Assembly (NCBI GenBank): GCA_043799545.1
Contig: JAZDNO010000022.1
Span: 1 to 56,134 of the forward strand
Direction: 5' to 3'
Length of the DNA: 56,134 nt
Source: Methanobacteriota archaeon
Lineage (GTDB): Archaea > Thermoplasmatota > Thermoplasmata > SG8-5 > DAIRED01
The notes beneath the pieces are model-generated. The model saw only the letters and a program-made list of their open reading frames with translations. It had not been told where the DNA came from and did not search any database. The position numbers and the translations under genes were made by a program. Below are positions 14,735 through 47,309 of the stretch, piece by piece. Numbering within the stretch: the first letter of the stretch is position 1; every line of letters begins with the position of its first letter.

Positions 14735-17700
14735 TCACCCGCTGCCTATTTCGATATCAATGGTTTCTCGGGCCATCGCTCCGCCATTGTCAGTAATTGT
14801 CAAGGTGACTGTGTAGGTTGATGGCCCGGCGAATGTGTGCGCCACGATTGCACCTTCAGCGGCGGTGCCATCTCCGAAGTCCCAAACATACGAAGCGATT
14901 GCGCCATCACGGTCATAGGATTCCGATGCGTCAAAGAAGAACTGGTAGTTGTTCAAGGCCACGCCGTCCAAGTATGATGTGCTCAACGTGATTTCCTGGT
15001 AATATCCGCATAGAGTGTTGAATTCTTTAAAGAATGAAAGGGTATCGTCTCCAGAGGTGAACTTCAGCCACGTTGGATTCTCGCCAGGATGATTGGCCGA
15101 ATATTTCAGAATGACCGAATAGCTGCGTCCAAGGTACTTGTTCAGGACCATCGTTTGTGTGTCTGGGGCTCCGGTGCCTCGCGTCACCGACATCTGTCGG
15201 ATGAGTTCGCCATCTTCGTAGATTTCAACTGTAACCGTGTTACCCTTTCGACCCGCGATTTTGACCGAAACGAATACCTCTTGGTACACACCGATTTGTT
15301 GCACTGGTGGCCTATTGGGGATTTCAACGACTCTCGTCAGGGATGTAGTCAATCCATTCTCAAACACGATTGTGAGGTTCACTGTGTAGCTCCCGGATTC
15401 CGTGAACGGAAATTCATGCAATCCAGTATCATGCTGAGTTATGACCGTTCCGTTCCCAAAGTCCCATATGAGGGTTTCGGGTTGTATCAAGCCCTCTCTG
15501 CTGATGTGTGGAGCGCAATATACAGTCGTGCTGTTCTCGTAAAATTCCTTGATTGTCGCGTCCAAATCGACGATTCTTTCTTGGATTAAGCCATCCGCTG
15601 CATTGAAATCGAAATGCATCGTGCGGGAGCGCGTTCCCGATTCTATGGTCACATCGACAGTATTTGCACCCGTGCCAGAATTTTCATACCTCAACACCAT
15701 GAGCATGCCATATCCGACCGGATTGCGAAGCGTCAGAGATTTGCTCTCTGGCTCTCCGCCACTTAAGGTGACATCCCCAATTATTTTCGATGCGTTGCCT
15801 TGAGTGGCGATGAAATATATCTCGACGGCGTTGTTTTCCGCTCCGCTCACGGTCGCGGTCGCGTCGATTTGTTGGATAATCTCGATATCGTCAATCTTCA
15901 CATATCGCTGGATAATGGTATAATATCCCTTCGTGTACAATATTATGTCACGGTATTCCGTCTCCGGCGCCTCGTATGGAAATTCGAGGTCCACATATTC
16001 CCCGCAGTTCAGTTCCACATACGTTTCATCGCCGTATGCCAGCTCATCCATCACGTCGCCGTCAACCGAATGCACAGCGGAGGTCAGCACACATGTTGTA
16101 TCAATAAAATCACCGCCCTCCGATTGGTCCAGACCGACGAAGTCGACTTGGTGGTGCGCCCTCCACGAGATATTCACATGCAGATAATCGGTCGATGCCT
16201 GTAGGAAAGAAGTCAAATCAAAGACATCGATGCTCCACAATTCCCTTGGTATGATGGAACCGACCTGAATCCAATCCCCATCGGCATTTAAAATTCGGAT
16301 TTCTATCGGACCGTATAGCGGTTCGATGGCGTCCCAAGGAAGATAGTCGTAAGTGCATTTCAAATCGGACCTGAGTATTAGTTTTGCTGGCTTGCCGTAA
16401 TCGCAAGCGAATTTCACAACCAAACAATCATCCTTGTACCCATCATAATATTCATCGCCCATTGCCCCGACGACATTCGTGAGGTTCGCGTTGTTTTTAT
16501 CAAGACAGGAAAGCGGGGGAACGGGGTCTCCGTAGATGACTATATAGCCTTCCGGGGTCACGCCGACATTGAAATCGCCATCGTGGTCTATTGTGATGAG
16601 TTCGGCGTTGTCTATGTAAGATATCTCAAACAATTCCCCCTCCATTATTCGGAATTTGTATTTGTCCCCGACCGGAACCGGAGATTTTTGCAGGACGTAT
16701 GCATCGTCTATCATCGAACTCTGTTTGCTGAAATCTTCGGAATTCGTGAGCAGGCTGTTGTCCGGTTCGTAATTCGTGCCGTTCCATACCCAAACGTAAG
16801 GGCAGGATGGAGGCCACACCTTGTTATGTACCAATACTCCACCTGCGAAATAGTTATGGTTGTTCTCGACTTCCAGATTGTAGACAACGGCAGTCTTTTC
16901 GATGACCTCTCTCGATAAAACAGGAACATCCCCATCAATCCCGATCAAGGTATCTCCAATGGTGATATTTTCAGCGTTCTTAATCAAGTTTTGTGTGTAT
17001 ATCGGGTGGTTTCCAGTGACTTCGAGACCATTGATTTTCAAATATGAATCAACTGTGTGGTTCGATGTGTATATCACGGTGTCCGTTTCTATCTCTCCGG
17101 TTCGTTCGTTGTACGACAATATCCGGTCCCCTTGCGCTATGTTCTCGATATTCGCCTCACCGTTCGGGGTCGACACTTTGGTCCCGCCGACGAAACAGTA
17201 ACCCGGCGGTGGCGCCGACCATGGGACTTGATCCGTGGCGAAGGTTACCGTAAGGGAATCCGTGTGTTTGCCCGTAGAATCTACCGCTCTGACAAAGAGC
17301 GTGAAAACATTGCTTGAAGGTAGACCGCCTACGGCTTCGAACGGGTCTGTTGTGGTTTGCAATAAATTACTGCTGCCCGAATAGACCCAATAAATTTGGT
17401 AAACAACTGGCGATACATCGATTGATGCGGTCCATTCCAACCAAACACTGGTCACACTTGGATTAACAGTATGAATGATGGGAGCTGTGGGATTTTCCGT
17501 ATCGATTTGGATTTTATAGGTTCCAATCGGATAGGTGTTAGTATTCGTGTGTTTAAAGGATACATGGAGGTACCATAATCCTTCTTGAACATTAGTTAGA
17601 CCAATTGTTGTTGTGGCTGGGGAGTCGACCGTAGTTGTGCCAGCGGCGAGTGGGTCGGGGAGGTTGCTTGGATTGCTGTCGTGGTTTAAAACATAATAAA

Positions 17701-41652: not shown

Positions 41653-41693
41653 TATGCGTGTTTAGCTTACTCGGAACGATAAGAGGCGATGCC

Positions 41694-44030
41694 ATGGATT
41701 ACTGCCCCAAATGCGGAACCGCCAGGACCGCGAAGGTTTGCGCCCACTGCGGACACGCATTCGTCGATGCCGGAACATACCAGCCGCAGCAGACGTACGG
41801 AGGCGCGGCTCCAGCCGGCTATCCCACCCAGCAGTATCAGCCCGCCCCCTATCAATCCCAGCAGCCGCCTTACCCGCCTTCCCAACCGCAGGAGCCCGCG
41901 TATCAACCTTACCAGGCGCCTCCGGCATACCAGTATCCGCAGCCGCCATCTCCGGGGCAATACCCGCCCCCGCCGGGACAGGGCTATCCGCCGATGCCAC
42001 TGCCGAGCCCCAAAACTGGGTCGGGCAAGACCATACTCGTCGTTTTGGTAGTCGTCATCGTGGTGATAGCCGCAATAGCCGCCGCAATAATGTTCATGGC
42101 CGTGGTCGGCCCGTTCGCAAGTGCAAAGGAGATTCACGACGGCGAGTCTATCACCGGGACGATCGCCGGCTCCGGCTCTGATGACCTGTACAAGATAAAA
42201 CTTCAGCCGGGAGACGTAATATCAGCCAAACTCAGCGGCGACGGCGGAACGGATTTCGATCTGTATGCCTATGAAAACGTCCTGTTCTGGGACGAATACA
42301 TCATAACCGGAAGCGCAAACGAAACCAGCTCCGAGGCCCTGAACGTCGTGGCCTGGAAGAGCGATTTCTACATCCTCGACGTATTCTCGTACGTCGGCGG
42401 AGGGGACTACACGCTGAAGGTGGACATAGTGGACTCGGTTAGCCTGGACGACGGGGACAATTCCATGTCGGAAGCCACCACCATTGACAGCGGCAATCAC
42501 GTGACTGGCGGGCTTAACGAATACTACGACACGGACGATTACTACGAGATTTACGTGAGCTCCGGCCAGATACTGCATGCGCACCTTGAGGTTCCAGTCC
42601 AGGTGAACACGGACTTTGACCTGTACATTTACGACTCTTCCGGAAAGCAGGTTGGAGTTTCCGATGCGGCATACGGTAACGAGGAGTTGAGCATCTACGC
42701 GTCTTCGTCGGGGCAATATTTCGTGAACGCTTGCGCTTACGACGGCATAGGCTCTTACACGCTGTCCGTCGACATGCAGACTGGCACAGATGCGGATTCG
42801 AACAACGATCTGAGCACGGCCCAGGGCATCGTGGACGGCGGGGAAATCAGCTCTGCCATCAACGAGTACAACGACGTCGACGATTACTACGTCATCTATG
42901 TGGCGGCCGGACAGCAAATCACCGCCACCATGACCGGCTCTGCCAACGCAGATTTTGACCTGTACCTGTACGACGACAGCGGGGACATCGTCGCGAGTTC
43001 GAAGGAATACACGTCCTCCGAGACCATCGTCTACACAGCACCGACCAGCGGCGATTACTATGTGAACCCCAGCGCGTACGATGGCTTCGGAACGTATGCG
43101 CTCATCGTCAGCCTGGGCGCCGGGGGCTCGTCCCTCAATGCCAACGCCGGTTACGACAGGACGGTCGGAGTCGGCCAGGCTGTGACGTTCGACGGGGGCG
43201 GCTCCACCGGGTCAATATCCGATTACAGCTGGGACTTCGACGACGGCTCGATTGGCACTGGCTCCAGCGTCACCCATTCCTACAACTCGACCGGAACCTA
43301 CACCGTGACTTTGACAGTCACCGGCGGTTCGGGAACGGACGCGGATACCGTCTCAATCACGGTCCGGGACGCAGGGTCGATGCCAAACAAGTACGCCGTG
43401 GTCGTGGGAATATCGGACTATCAGAGCGACGGGAACGACCTCCAATTCTGCGACGAGGACGCCGAAAGCTGGGCATCCTACCTTGAGTCGCAGGGGTACA
43501 CCGTCCATATCCTGATTGATTCGCAAGCATCGAGGGACGACATTCTGGATGAGATAAGCTGGCTCGAAGGCCAGGAGGAGACGGGGGACTATGTCGCCTT
43601 CGTTTACTCGGGCCACGGGAGCACCTCGGACCGCACCAGGTCGTCGTACATCTGCCCTTGGAACGACGAGGAGCAGGGGTTCATGATATCCGACGCGGAA
43701 CTGGGAGCCGCATTCGAGAATTTCGACAGCCAGCATATCTTCGTCTTCTTCGATTCCTGCTTCAGCGGTGGGATGGACAGCGTCGCAGGCGCAGGAAGGT
43801 ACATCAGCCAGACCGCCGGAGCCGACGAGGTCGGCCTGGACGCCTCGAAGTTCGAGCACGGGATGTGGACGTACTGGTTCCTGGAATATTCCGTGAAGGA
43901 AAGCGGCTACGCCGACCTCACCCAGGCGTACGACGTGGCCGCTCCGAGAGCCGTGGCCGAAGCCGCGGAGGGCGGCACATCCATGCACCCCGAGGAGGAG
44001 TGGGAGGGGAGCGGGGCGTTCTATCTGTAG
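41694..44030 (+). CDS. Type II membrane protein: Zn ribbon, Pro/Gln/Tyr-rich linker, TM, 3 PPC-like domains, PKD, caspase-family (C14) protease
   Basis: CPKC..CAHC; one TM; DFDLY repeats; PKD WDFDDG; KYAVVVGISDY, YSGHG (His 43614-43616), FDSCFSGG (Cys 43758-43760). Confidence 0.9.
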   Translation: MDYCPKCGTARTAKVCAHCGHAFVDAGTYQPQQTYGGAAPAGYPTQQYQPAPYQSQQPPYPPSQPQEPAYQPYQAPPAYQYPQPPSPGQYPPPPGQGYPPMPLPSPKTGSGKTILVVLVVVIVVIAAIAAAIMFMAVVGPFASAKEIHDGESITGTIAGSGSDDLYKIKLQPGDVISAKLSGDGGTDFDLYAYENVLFWDEYIITGSANETSSEALNVVAWKSDFYILDVFSYVGGGDYTLKVDIVDSVSLDDGDNSMSEATTIDSGNHVTGGLNEYYDTDDYYEIYVSSGQILHAHLEVPVQVNTDFDLYIYDSSGKQVGVSDAAYGNEELSIYASSSGQYFVNACAYDGIGSYTLSVDMQTGTDADSNNDLSTAQGIVDGGEISSAINEYNDVDDYYVIYVAAGQQITATMTGSANADFDLYLYDDSGDIVASSKEYTSSETIVYTAPTSGDYYVNPSAYDGFGTYALIVSLGAGGSSLNANAGYDRTVGVGQAVTFDGGGSTGSISDYSWDFDDGSIGTGSSVTHSYNSTGTYTVTLTVTGGSGTDADTVSITVRDAGSMPNKYAVVVGISDYQSDGNDLQFCDEDAESWASYLESQGYTVHILIDSQASRDDILDEISWLEGQEETGDYVAFVYSGHGSTSDRTRSSYICPWNDEEQGFMISDAELGAAFENFDSQHIFVFFDSCFSGGMDSVAGAGRYISQTAGADEVGLDASKFEHGMWTYWFLEYSVKESGYADLTQAYDVAAPRAVAEAAEGGTSMHPEEEWEGSGAFYL

Positions 44031-44632: not shown

Positions 44633-45343
44633 TCATTTGCGCCGGGGTGGCCGAAAGTGGCTCTCTCCCAAAGGCGTGGAACGCCAAACGGTTCGATGGG
44701 TCGCGGTGAACTCGTCCAGCTCTTTGTGCCATTCGTCAGGCTCGAAGGTTTTCTTTATGGTATCCTCTCCGAACAGAAGGTCCACCAGGTAGCGCGGTTT
44801 CTTCCCGCCTATGAAGACAGATTTCGCGCACGATACACAATAGACCACCACATCTTCGACAGGCATCTCCGACGCCCTCTTCCGCATTATTTCTTTGACC
44901 GCTTCCACAGGGATTTTCCCCCATCCGCTGTCGCCGCAGCACGTGCTTTTCAAACCCGAATTCTTGGGTTCGACCAGCACGATGTTCATCCTCCCCAGCA
45001 GTGTTCTCACTGCCCGGTGCACCCTGACTTCCGTCCGCGTCGGGCAGGCGTCGATTATCGACACCGTATTTCCACCATAGTCAGGAAAGTCGAAAGAATC
45101 GCTTGCCGACAAAACCTCCCACAGCGAAATCGTGGACGAGCCTTCACGCTCACGGTACCGCTTATCGCATCCAGGACACACGTTTATGACCTGGGCCCCG
45201 GGCTCGATCTCGGGCTCGTTCATGCAGCACAGGTCCAGCATCTCCATATCGCCCAGGTTTTTACATAAAAGCTCATGCACCTTCTTCGCCAGCGCGGGCT
45301 TATAGATGAGGAGGGCGCAGCCGGGAGCGAAGAGGCGTTTCAT
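44633..45343 (-). CDS. Cys-rich (CCG-like) Fe-S-binding protein
   Basis: FAPGCA, CC, CPGC, DACP, TCCG, YCVSC pattern. Confidence 0.8.
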   Translation of the reverse strand: MKRLFAPGCALLIYKPALAKKVHELLCKNLGDMEMLDLCCMNEPEIEPGAQVINVCPGCDKRYREREGSSTISLWEVLSASDSFDFPDYGGNTVSIIDACPTRTEVRVHRAVRTLLGRMNIVLVEPKNSGLKSTCCGDSGWGKIPVEAVKEIMRKRASEMPVEDVVVYCVSCAKSVFIGGKKPRYLVDLLFGEDTIKKTFEPDEWHKELDEFTATHRTVWRSTPLGESHFRPPRRK

Positions 45344-45386
45344 ATGTCAATGCGAAGCGAATCGAAGGTATAAAAATTACCGCTTA

Positions 45387-45410
45387 TTCCACCGGTGGAA
45401 ACCTTAATAT
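45387..45410 (+). promoter_or_regulatory. BRE/TATA-like promoter with an overlapping perfect 14-bp palindrome
   Basis: TTCCACCGGTGGAA (45387-45400) overlaps AAACCTTAATAT (45399-45410), about 37 nt upstream of the tRNA 5' fragment. Confidence 0.55.
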
Positions 45411-45446
45411 CATAATCCAGTTTTACCCTTTCTAGCGGTATGCAAT

Positions 45447-45467
45447 GCCACTGTAGCTCAGCTGGTG
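45447..45467 (+). repeat. Duplicated 5' end of tRNA-Thr (21 nt)
   Basis: GCCACTGTAGCTCAGCTGGTG is identical to 45574-45594. Confidence 0.9.
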
Positions 45468-45573
45468 CATTAGACGAGTTGCGCTCGTCTATGCCTCGCT
45501 GAACCACAACGCATTTGTCCTGGTTCAGCTTCGGGAGTATGCTCGAATAAAATCCATTCATAAGCAACAAAAC

Positions 45574-45646
45574 GCCACTGTAGCTCAGCTGGTGGAGCAG
45601 CTGATTCGTAATCAGCAGGTCGAGGGTTCAAATCCCTTCAGTGGCT
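45574..45646 (+). tRNA. tRNA-Thr (anticodon CGU), no intron, CCA not encoded
   Basis: Acceptor GCCACTG/CAGTGGC, anticodon stem GCTGA/TCAGC with loop TTCGTAA, T-loop GTTCAAATC, discriminator U. Confidence 0.97.
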
Positions 45647-45756
45647 CTATAAATTTTCTATTACTTTCATCAATATGGGATTTGAACTAAGACCACCAGA
45701 GGGGACCGATTGTGCTGCTAACCCACTGGTCGTCGGTTCAAATCCCTTCAGTGGCT
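45639..45756 (+). repeat. tRNA-derived module, copy 1
   Basis: CAGTGGCT, 30 nt, GGGATTTGAACTAAGACCACCA (45677-45698), loop, then GGTTCAAATCCCTTCAGTGGCT (45735-45756, identical to the tRNA 3' 22 nt). Hairpin spans 45677-45746. Confidence 0.9.
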
Positions 45757-45798
45757 TAATATTTTTAGCTCTAAATAGCCCATGCCGCAGGAGCATTC

Positions 45799-45915
45799 CA
45801 GTGGCTCTATTTATTATTATAATCTAGCTATGAATCGGGAATTGAACTTGGACCAACGCATGGGACGTAATTTGCTTTTTTCCAAGTGTTGGTCGGTTCA
45901 ATCCCCCCAGTGGCT
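45799..45915 (+). repeat. tRNA-derived module, copy 2 (diverged, pairing retained)
   Basis: CAGTGGCT (45799-45806), 30 nt, GGGAATTGAACTTGGACCAACGC, loop, GTGTTGGTCGGTTCAATCCCCCCAGTGGCT. Hairpin spans 45837-45906. Confidence 0.85.
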
Positions 45916-45932
45916 TACGCATCCCCTTAGTG

Positions 45933-47003
45933 TTATTCTTCGTGTTCGTGCCTGTGGTGGGTGTCCGGCGCGTGCGGGTGGGCGTGCTCGACCGCTTCGT
46001 GCTCGTGGGGATGAGAGTGCGCACCTTCCACGGGTTTCTCGTGTGCGTGGTCGTGATGTTCGTCGTCGTGGACGTGCCTGTGCTCGTGCGTCTCCGATGT
46101 GTGGACGTGTGGGTGCGCGTGCGCCTCCCTGAAAAGGAGGACCGCTCCGACGACCATCAGTGGGACGGACACCATGAAGCCCACGGTCAGTGAATCGTGG
46201 AAGATTGCCAGGCCAATCGCCGCACCCACAAACGGAGCTGTGCCGAAGAGCGCCCCGGTCCGCGCGGCACCCATGTCCCGCAACGCCCGGATGTATAGCG
46301 CGATGCTCAGCCCGTAGCAGACGAATCCCACGAGCATCGCGGCGAACGCTGTCGTCATCGCGGGGAAATCCCTGCCTATGATAAAGGCCAGGGCGATGCT
46401 GAACAGCCCGGCGCCCACCCCCTTGATTGCGACGATGGATATTGGGTCCCTCGCGGAGACGTTGCGCGTGAAGTTATTGTCCAGCCCCCATAGTAAGCAT
46501 GCCGCGAGGATTGCTAAAATCCCAGGCGAAATACCCCATCCGCTCGCTGCGTTAACCGACAAGACGACGCTGCCAGCAGTCACGAGGAAGAGTGCCAGCC
46601 AGATCCCCCGCCCAACAGCTTCTTTGAACATCAGCCTCGCGACTATGACCGTCCCGACGGCTTCGAAATTCAAAAGCAACGCCGCCGTCGAAGCAGGTGT
46701 GGTCCCGAGCCCGAACATGAGGATTATTGGTGCCGCTATGCCGCCCACGACCAGCGCGGACATAAGCCAAGGCAAATCCGCCTTTCTCAACGGCGCCTCG
46801 GAGCTGGCCCTCCCCATGGCCGTCTGGGTCGCCTTCGCAAGCGCCATCCCGAGCCCGCTGCCCAGATAAAGTAGCCCCGCGAGCATCACCGGGTCTACTG
46901 TGTCCAGCATGACCTTCGCCAGTGGAGCGCTCGCGCCGAACAGCACCGCCGCTCCCAACCCCATCAGAATCGCTAAATTCCGTTGATGCGTATTCCACGT
47001 CAT
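45933..47003 (-). CDS. DMT/EamA transporter with a His-rich C-terminal tail
   Basis: About 10 TM helices (ASTAALLLNFE, WGLDNN, GAARTGALF); tail HAHPHVH...HHRHEHEE. Confidence 0.92.
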   Translation of the reverse strand: MTWNTHQRNLAILMGLGAAVLFGASAPLAKVMLDTVDPVMLAGLLYLGSGLGMALAKATQTAMGRASSEAPLRKADLPWLMSALVVGGIAAPIILMFGLGTTPASTAALLLNFEAVGTVIVARLMFKEAVGRGIWLALFLVTAGSVVLSVNAASGWGISPGILAILAACLLWGLDNNFTRNVSARDPISIVAIKGVGAGLFSIALAFIIGRDFPAMTTAFAAMLVGFVCYGLSIALYIRALRDMGAARTGALFGTAPFVGAAIGLAIFHDSLTVGFMVSVPLMVVGAVLLFREAHAHPHVHTSETHEHRHVHDDEHHDHAHEKPVEGAHSHPHEHEAVEHAHPHAPDTHHRHEHEE

Positions 47004-47143: not shown

Positions 47144-47260
47144 ATGACAATTGAAAATGAAATAAATTTTTCCAATGTGAATAGATTTTACGCTAAATTT
47201 CGCAGAAAATTACCTTATAAAAGATACTGGCTCGATTTTAGCAGCCTTTCAGTGGCTTAA
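47144..47260 (+). pseudogene. Possible truncated 5' gene fragment (38 aa) ending at the CAGTGGCT core
   Basis: TATA-like TTTATAAT and GGCGG upstream of ATG 47144; MTIENEINFSNVNRFYAKFRRKLPYKRYWLDFSSLSVA*, with TAA immediately after the core. Confidence 0.3.
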
Positions 47261-47309
47261 TAAATTTTTCATAGCTTTCGTCAACCTGGGATTTGAACTA
47301 AGACCACCA
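47250..47309 (+). repeat. tRNA-derived module, copy 3 (left half only)
   Basis: CAGTGGCT (47250-47257), 30 nt, GGGATTTGAACTAAGACCACCA (47288-47309, identical to 45677-45698); no right arm follows. Confidence 0.9.

Follow-up and report, generated by a model that had tools for sequence, protein, structure and literature searches.

Fold-back modules with copies of tRNA ends behind tRNA-Thr(CGT) and at other tRNA genes of a Thermoplasmata archaeon

The window, that is, the whole 56,134-nt stretch of archaeal DNA that was analyzed, carries a tRNA-Thr(CGT) gene that is followed by two hairpin units, an EamA-family transporter gene, a truncated third unit and repeated copies of the tRNA 3′ end (Table 1). 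Below, G000 is the genome under study, G001 a relative from the same genus, and C numbers are contigs. ARAGORN and Rfam call a cloverleaf at 45574–45647 alone, and by that test the hairpin units are neither tRNA genes nor tRNA pseudogenes. A copy of the tRNA 3′ end (..CAGTGGCT) stands after each hairpin and is succeeded by AT-rich DNA; additional copies lie at 45799–45806 and 47250–47257, so that the copies behind the tRNA end at 45756, 45806, 45915 and 47257. The last of them is followed by a linker and by the truncated third unit. The segment at 45752–45791 aligns to the trailer of tRNA-Phe (C10:129583), including an exact 10-mer. The C-terminal tail of the EamA transporter is histidine-rich. 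A PrcB_C-domain gene, which does not encode a recombinase, lies beyond the truncated third unit, and no recombinase was found within 42–49.5 kb of the window. Upstream of the tRNA, positions 41658–44030 (plus strand) encode a large secreted-type protein with PPC, PKD and caspase (Peptidase_C14) domains.

The DNA 5′ of the tRNA gene contains a 127-nt insertion, which a duplication of 21–24 nt from the tRNA 5′ end delimits; at its left edge, nucleotides 1–21 of the tRNA recur (45447–45467). Homologues of the two-hairpin cassette inside this insertion are found upstream of tRNA-Thr(TGT) on C10 and of tRNA-Asn on C26, and another lies inside a downstream module of tRNA-Gln(CTG). A promoter-like AT box is present upstream of the outer tRNA 5′ copy (insertion at 45444–45594), so tRNA-Thr(CGT) would receive a long structured leader.

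Table 1. Features at the tRNA-Thr(CGT) locus; positions are those of the window.
Position	Strand	Feature	Basis
45444–45467	+	Copy of the leader end and tRNA-Thr nt 1–21; left edge of the 127-nt upstream insertion	Repeat D5, 96% identical to 45571–45594
45468–45537	+	Two-hairpin cassette CAT-hairpin-TGCCTCG-hairpin-CTTCGGGAG, within the upstream insertion	Fold z −3.6
45574–45647	+	tRNA-Thr(CGT) gene	ARAGORN; Rfam RF00005, 69.9 bits
45648–45676	+	T-rich linker A, with TTTT, probable tRNA terminator	Sequence; related linker at 47258–47287
45677–45746	+	Hairpin unit 1 (type B); left arm 45677–45687 antisense of T-loop and T-stem 3′ strand	Folds, repeats, homologues
45735–45756	+	Copy of the tRNA-Thr 3′ end in sense orientation, GGTTCAAATCCCTTCAGTGGCT; overlaps with the right arm of unit 1	Direct repeats D2, D3
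45752–45791	+	tRNA-Phe-type trailer and antisense arm ATGCCGCAGG (45782–45791) in the Thr locus	Local alignment
45794–45806	+	Short third copy of the Thr 3′ end, CATTCCAGTGGCT	Direct repeat D4
45807–45836	+	AT-rich linker B	Sequence
45837–45906	+	Hairpin unit 2 (type B, tRNA-Thr(GGT) lineage)	85% identity with the tRNA-Thr(GGT) unit on C31
45895–45915	+	Decayed sense copy of a Thr 3′ end, GGTTCAATCCCCCCAGTGGCT	Direct repeat D3
45933–47003	−	EamA-family transporter gene, between tRNA-end copies	Pfam PF00892, 9e-26
47250–47309	+	Fourth copy of the Thr 3′ end, CAGTGGCT, with linker and left half of a third type-B unit (47288–47309)	Sequence

The two complete units are both 70 nt long. The initial annotation had described them as hairpins of different sequence that share the same pairing and bulge position and contain an antisense T-arm, and had proposed that they be folded and that a covariance model be built from homologues. 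The description stands. As RNA, unit 1 has a minimum free energy (MFE) of −32.5 kcal/mol (z −4.7) and unit 2 one of −31.7 kcal/mol (z −5.2), and none of 200 shuffles was as stable in either case; as single-stranded DNA the values are −16.6 (z −4.7) and −14.8 (z −3.4), with both units folding equally well on either strand. The bulge, located at a common position, measures 2 nt and is accompanied by mismatches. The units are direct repeats, 160 nt apart and 70% identical. The left arm of unit 1, GGGATTTGAAC, is a perfect complement of 45626–45636 in the tRNA (T-loop and 3′ strand of the T-stem) and, equally, of its own right arm (45736–45746). The left arm of unit 2 complements the T-loop of the GGT isoacceptor and not that of the neighbouring tRNA-Thr(CGT). 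The 11-mer GGGAWTTGAAC occurs five times in the window against an expectation of 0.01. Across tRNA positions 36–73, unit 1 matches the tRNA in its right arm at 79% identity, with the T stem broken.

Selection on structure, also suggested at the outset, is supported within a set of five type-B homologues, in which 4 of 23 pairs have changed on both sides, 96% of cells are paired, and loops vary while stems are kept. Seven compensatory cells were counted in this set versus 3.5 in shuffles, a value reached by 3 of 500 shuffles. The pairing thus appears to be selected or otherwise maintained, as judged from compensatory changes and from stable stems set against variable loops. The type-B covariance model matches in G000 and G001 only among 22 genomes of the order searched, and the lack of matches outside the genus makes a large-scale covariation test of both hairpins impossible.

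The T-loop and T-stem contain a perfect 11-nt complement of the left arm, and the trailer had been proposed to act as an RNA switch, in which the arm competes with the T arm of the tRNA in mutually exclusive folds and controls maturation. The arms do follow changes in the tRNA (see below), which would suit such a device. However, the MFE and centroid structures of the read-through transcript 45574–45770 preserve the T arm, and the left arm is engaged by the right arm of the same unit. The tRNA and the unit are separated by a T-run, which is the usual stop signal in archaea; the modules would be transcribed only by read-through past the T-run of the tRNA. In addition, G001 has an identical tRNA without these units behind it. 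We therefore do not favour a switch, which we regard as very improbable.

All three tRNA-Thr isoacceptors of the assembly have such units. When every tRNA was scanned, the same arrangement emerged behind most of them. A T-rich linker leads to a stretch that is exactly antisense to the 3′ region of the tRNA concerned, then come one or more hairpins, and the module often closes with a sense copy of the tRNA 3′ end and a T-run. About 45 tRNAs of G000 and G001 have an exact antisense arm of 8–16 nt. The loop between the arm in the tRNA and the antisense arm is 23–24 nt long in some 30 of these 45, whichever part of the 3′ region is mirrored; the units of tRNA-Thr(CGT) and tRNA-Thr(TGT) are outliers in this respect (39–40 nt). 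Stem positions are Watson-Crick in 1267 of 1316 cases, leaving 49 exceptions. The commonest core, type A, consists of two hairpins. Hairpin 1 is conserved, its loop included, and has a bulge of 4 nt; hairpin 2 is variable in sequence and always paired. Type B is the core of the tRNA-Thr units. Relatives also contain minimal 48-nt palindromes that form acceptor-stem-like minihelices (loci L017, L022 and L033). Mirror-image modules are located upstream of some tRNAs. They combine a sense copy of the tRNA 5′ end with a hairpin, followed by an antisense copy and by sequence duplicated from the leader, or even from the promoter. Linkers end in purine-rich, A-rich motifs (GCAAA and ATAGA among them), none of which is constant, and modules are bracketed by tRNA-end repeats.

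The outline of type-A hairpin 1 (e.g. G000 C31:11410–11460), with a helix, a bulge of 3–4 nt, a 4-bp helix, 2–3 nt, a short helix and a loop, resembles the bulge-helix-bulge motif that is cut by the archaeal splicing endonuclease.

A literature search found no description of such archaeal modules, which apparently constitute a large and undescribed family of small gene-less elements that copy tRNA ends. Units 1 and 2 are best explained as tandem diverged copies of a genus-specific form (type B) within this lineage-wide class of non-coding modules.

Arms and cores behave differently in evolution. Between species, arms change complementarily with the 3′ region of their tRNA, as observed for tRNA-Thr(GGT), tRNA-Ile, tRNA-Tyr, tRNA-Leu(TAA) and tRNA-Gln(CTG). 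Cores do not follow the locus: those at orthologous positions are 53–70% identical, while the closest cores at different tRNAs are 75–84% identical and have unrelated arms. Cores are exchanged among loci while arms match the local tRNA. The type-A hairpin-1 model detects 16 copies in G000 and 23 in G001, and has no match in 119 other genomes of the class. Judging from the reach of the two models, the core families are young, and they are dispersed. Pieces are also found at foreign addresses, such as the GGT-type unit and the Phe-type arm inside the CGT locus. In G001 only, a rubredoxin gene has at its 3′ end a T-loop-like 8–11-mer that is followed by a type-B-like module. Elsewhere, away from any tRNA, there are type-A units that have sense arms of their own.

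The module at the rubredoxin-like gene (locus L090, G001:C40, 1500–1620, minus strand) follows GGTTCAAATCC at the very end of the gene. The G000 orthologue has a different end without a module, and synteny breaks there.

The direct, inverted, direct order of the tRNA-end copies, the perfection of the arms and the presence of tandem arrays would be expected if modules were by-products of template switching during replication of heavily transcribed tRNA genes, later multiplied by unequal crossing-over and devoid of mobility. This scheme conflicts with related cores at many tRNAs with unrelated arms and with the Phe-type arm inside the Thr locus. Moreover, snap-back junctions should be palindromic; palindromic linkers were looked for in the sequence as a signature of snap-back, and were not seen. 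Template switching is accordingly given a slim chance as the source of the modules.

In G001, the syntenic locus has an identical tRNA-Thr(CGT), lacks the upstream insertion, and carries one type-A module directly followed by pgk; G000 thus has both hairpin units, EamA, the truncated unit and the PrcB_C-domain gene in addition. The EamA orthologues in G001 and G005 adjoin DNA that is found on contig C28 in G000, indicating that the EamA gene was relocated to the tRNA-Thr locus in G000. This neighbouring DNA is a GC-rich structured non-coding region (C28:1035–1374 in G000). At many other tRNA loci, whole modules differ between G000 and G001, either upstream or downstream of the tRNA. At tRNA-Thr(GGT), the antisense arm and the terminal end copy are common to both genomes, while the core is type B in G000 and type A in G001. 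Modules turn over fast between related species. No close pair of filled and empty sites defines the exact boundaries of a module.

Evidence bearing on whether the modules act as RNA or as DNA is mixed. Type-A hairpin 1 contains 30 compensatory cells versus 8.8 in shuffles, a value that none of 500 shuffles reached, and its unpaired bases are conserved. Its wobble pairs, read on the tRNA-sense strand, are 26 G:T versus 3 A:C, with 17 of the 26 contributed by one pair. Over all stems the counts are 22 G:T versus 14 A:C and in type-A hairpin 2 they are 3 versus 4; arms and hairpin 2 have no wobble bias, and wobble counts overall are mixed. A crude strand test, in which the 220 nt downstream of 89 tRNAs were folded on both strands, gave no asymmetry (594 versus 578 G:U). 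Rfam searches of 44800–46500 and seven related loci matched the tRNA alone, with RtT RNA (RF00391) unmatched at E-values up to 10. The units are also dispensable between congeners, which speaks against an RNA role.

One proposal is that modules are functional RNAs co-transcribed with the tRNA: they would act as fail-safe terminators, or RNase P, RNase Z or the CCA-adding enzyme would recognize them as decoys or processing signals. The T-run after every tRNA-end copy, the 48-nt minihelices, the retention of type-B stems with variable loops, and the covariation, conserved loop bases and sense-strand G:U pairs of type-A hairpin 1 are all compatible with it. Against it, a T-run separates the tRNA from the module, congeners with the same tRNA have other modules or none, cores are genus-specific, and modules also occur upstream of tRNAs and at sites unrelated to tRNAs; arms and type-A hairpin 2 lack a G:U preference, and no Rfam family matches. 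On balance, we consider a co-transcribed functional RNA unlikely, though with a real chance of being correct.

The initial annotation had alternatively raised a folded single-stranded DNA recombination substrate of the attC type. That part of the suggestion which concerns recombining single strands fits the fast turnover, but the analogy with attC fails. Although the hairpins contain mismatches as well as the 2-nt bulge and, as single-stranded DNA, fold on either strand, the arms derive from the tRNA: ..ATTTGAAC and GTTCAAAT.. are the T-loop and its complement, with a C at an R position of the attC core sites (RYYYAAC ... GTTRRRY). The host is an archaeon, by its tRNA features probably one of the Thermoplasmatota, and the best match to the integron integrase model TIGR02249 scores 95.9 bits against a cut-off of 265 bits. 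There is no cassette array either, the sole flanked gene being EamA, on the opposite strand and with 240 nt of its own upstream DNA. The idea that the units are attC sites recombined by an IntI integrase is effectively refuted.

Reverse transcriptase and TnpB were likewise without a match above cut-off in the genome, which makes retro-copying and OMEGA-type guides unlikely. Three tyrosine integrases (PF00589), encoded on other contigs, adjoin tRNAs, and far att junctions were found for two of these elements, pairing tRNA-Glu(TTC) with C22:~699 and tRNA-Val(GAC) with C28:~16002. These real junctions contain 13–14 nt cores and arm motifs of the TTAGCCAG type (TTAGCCAG/CTGGCTAA), and they lack a hairpin module. 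Beyond one of the two junctions there is an old type-A unit.

The two elements occupy G000 C10:218939–219700 with C22:~630–720 (Glu) and C25:2600–3404 with C28:~15985–16015 (Val), and their arm motifs are repeats of CTGGCT/AGCCAG. The Glu element shares 92% identity between G000 and G001; this far exceeds the genome average and suggests that the element spread recently. Separately, type-A hairpin 2 was considered as a pair of integrase-binding sites and rejected, as its stem sequence varies freely with compensation.

With three integrases next to tRNA genes, tRNA flanks acting as insertion hot spots, and direct repeats of the tRNA 3′ end bracketing inserts such as the EamA gene, the modules might be scars or miniature derivatives of tyrosine-integrase elements that accreted att sites in tRNA-Thr by repeated integration, with the hairpin as part of an attP arm. 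Yet the flanked DNA contains no integrase, EamA being the only gene between the copies, and the architecture of the real att junctions is not shared. Integration also does not account for an inverted arm at fixed spacing, for modules upstream of tRNAs, for their near-universal presence at tRNAs or for the exchange of cores with resident arms. An origin as integrase scars is thus distinctly improbable.

Of the 22 genomes of the order, 16 have a Y1 (HUH) transposase gene (PF01797), as do seven of seven good ones, mostly as a single copy; G000 has three matches. The protein is 52–63% identical across families and belongs to the IS200 class (NF033573, 110–113 bits; the RAYT model stays below cut-off). 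A frequent neighbour of the Y1 gene is a class II tRNA-like gene that comes with a hairpin and a partial copy of a tRNA. At clade level, the Y1 gene co-occurs with T-loop palindromes (16 of 22 versus 22 of 99 genomes), an association that rests mainly on two clades. The hairpins at the ends of the Y1 gene itself occur once in the genome and are not module hairpins, and family f6 has the Y1 gene without the T-loop palindrome pattern. Since the association is confounded by relatedness and contradicted by f6, and since the protein is of the IS200 class and has end hairpins unlike those of the modules, this conserved transposase is a weak lead as candidate enzyme.

The Y1 units are found at G000 C25:29957–30582 and C24:88554–88640 and at loci L071, L096 and L119, with the Y1 gene (C25:29957–30301 in G000) followed by the hairpin, the partial tRNA copy and the class II tRNA-like gene. 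This last gene, an unusual one of 86–90 nt, is called by ARAGORN as Leu(GAG) or ‘Phe(GAA)’, and in one copy position 33 is a C. In four families the far end is marked by a motif, ..CAAGCCTCGTCTGTAAGGGCGGGGTATA, and the whole may be an insertion sequence carrying a tRNA-like gene.

A Y1 transposase retained by the host, or another enzyme that cuts and joins, would be needed if the hairpin cores were mobile single-stranded DNA cassettes whose insertion is set by pairing between the arm, at the 5′ foot of the hairpin, and a target about 24 nt upstream, namely the tRNA 3′ end, the arm being re-templated from each target or corrected to it. We regard such cassettes as quite unlikely. If they did exist, they would represent a class of programmable, self-addressed elements with guides of 8–16 nt.

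What we propose instead, with roughly equal chances of being right or wrong, is that the modules are selfish or near-neutral DNA that duplicates and recombines at tRNA ends and does not regulate tRNA-Thr. Modules multiply in tandem, differ between congeners and appear at the loci of other tRNAs. In each module, a T-rich linker and an inverted copy of the tRNA 3′ region precede the hairpin core, behind which the 3′ end is usually copied once more in direct orientation together with its T-run. Spread may proceed by recombination or gene conversion via the common tRNA-end sequence, perhaps with modules as folded single strands, and the arms may be kept perfect by templated correction between close inverted and direct repeats together with selection against damage to the tRNA. 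At the tRNA-Thr(CGT) locus, successive events would have stacked unit 1, a chimeric Phe/Thr fragment, unit 2 of the GGT type, the EamA gene and an older truncated unit. The covariation, conserved unpaired bases and G:T excess of type-A hairpin 1 would also suit a functional RNA or a single strand bound by protein. The spacing of 23–24 nt is unexplained by simple recombination, and the persistence of the architecture across the order and parts of the class could mean a benefit to the host.

The annotation of tRNA genes is confused by the partial copies that the modules generate; modules also mark hot spots of relocation (the EamA transporter being an example) and break metagenome assemblies. 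If they are mobile or self-copying and invariably match the adjacent tRNA in part of their sequence, they would represent a new way in which small parasites, or elements tamed by the host, address safe sites in a genome. The 23–24 nt geometry and the target-matched arms offer a handle for biochemical tests. New here are the 23–24 nt rule, the finding that core similarity and arm identity disagree, the Phe- and GGT-type pieces foreign to the locus, the comparison with real att junctions and the Y1-transposase lead.

Among described systems, the tRNA-linked repeats of E. coli, att-site accretion and REPIN-like miniature elements come closest; each fits in part and none fully. The E. coli case reportedly concerns 178-bp repeats at tyrT and the RtT RNA (RF00391), and is said to go back to work by Egan and Landy in 1978, Rossi et al. 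in 1981 and Bösl and Kersten in 1991. Like the modules, these repeats are tandem non-coding units of unclear function directly behind a tRNA, and every unit closes with the last ~19 nt of the tRNA repeated, similar to the 3′-end copies seen here. Unlike them, the modules occur at most tRNAs and also upstream, have an inverted copy at a fixed distance, form long hairpins and share cores between loci; the RtT covariance model has no match at the modules.

In att accretion, as known for archaeal integrases of the SSV and pNOB8 types, tRNA ends are repeated and each older copy comes to lie farther out. Inserted DNA is bracketed by direct repeats of the tRNA 3′ end in both cases, whereas the modules have no integrase, involve inserts of as little as ~110 nt, contain an inverted arm and a hairpin, and differ in their junctions.

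REPINs, built from REP sequences and associated with RAYT transposases, are short, gene-less hairpin repeats that are lineage-specific and present in tens of copies (PMC3116915, PMC3333891, PMC5581495). The modules likewise are gene-less, form hairpins and evolve within genomes, and a single-copy Y1 gene accompanies them in seven of seven good genomes. REPINs do not copy their target, however, whereas the modules do; the Y1 protein here is of the IS200 type and not a RAYT, and its hairpins are single rather than dispersed. In one survey, the IS200-type subclass was the only one observed in Archaea (PMC6006769). A further comparison is with the ends of IS200/IS605 elements, which transpose as single-stranded DNA by peel-and-paste, and with miniature derivatives of these elements. 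A Y1 transposase is available in trans, and the layout of the modules recalls the arrangement of cleavage site and guide at IS608-type ends. In both, a linker separates a target-like sequence from its complement, which sits at the 5′ foot of a subterminal hairpin, and the other end has a second hairpin (PMC6006769). The known guides of IS200/IS605 elements are ~4 nt long, compared to 8–16 nt in the modules, those elements make no target duplication, and no cleavage motif could be defined at the modules. Should the modules prove to be mobile or self-copying, they would be an archaeal counterpart of the unexplained tRNA-linked repeats of E. coli.
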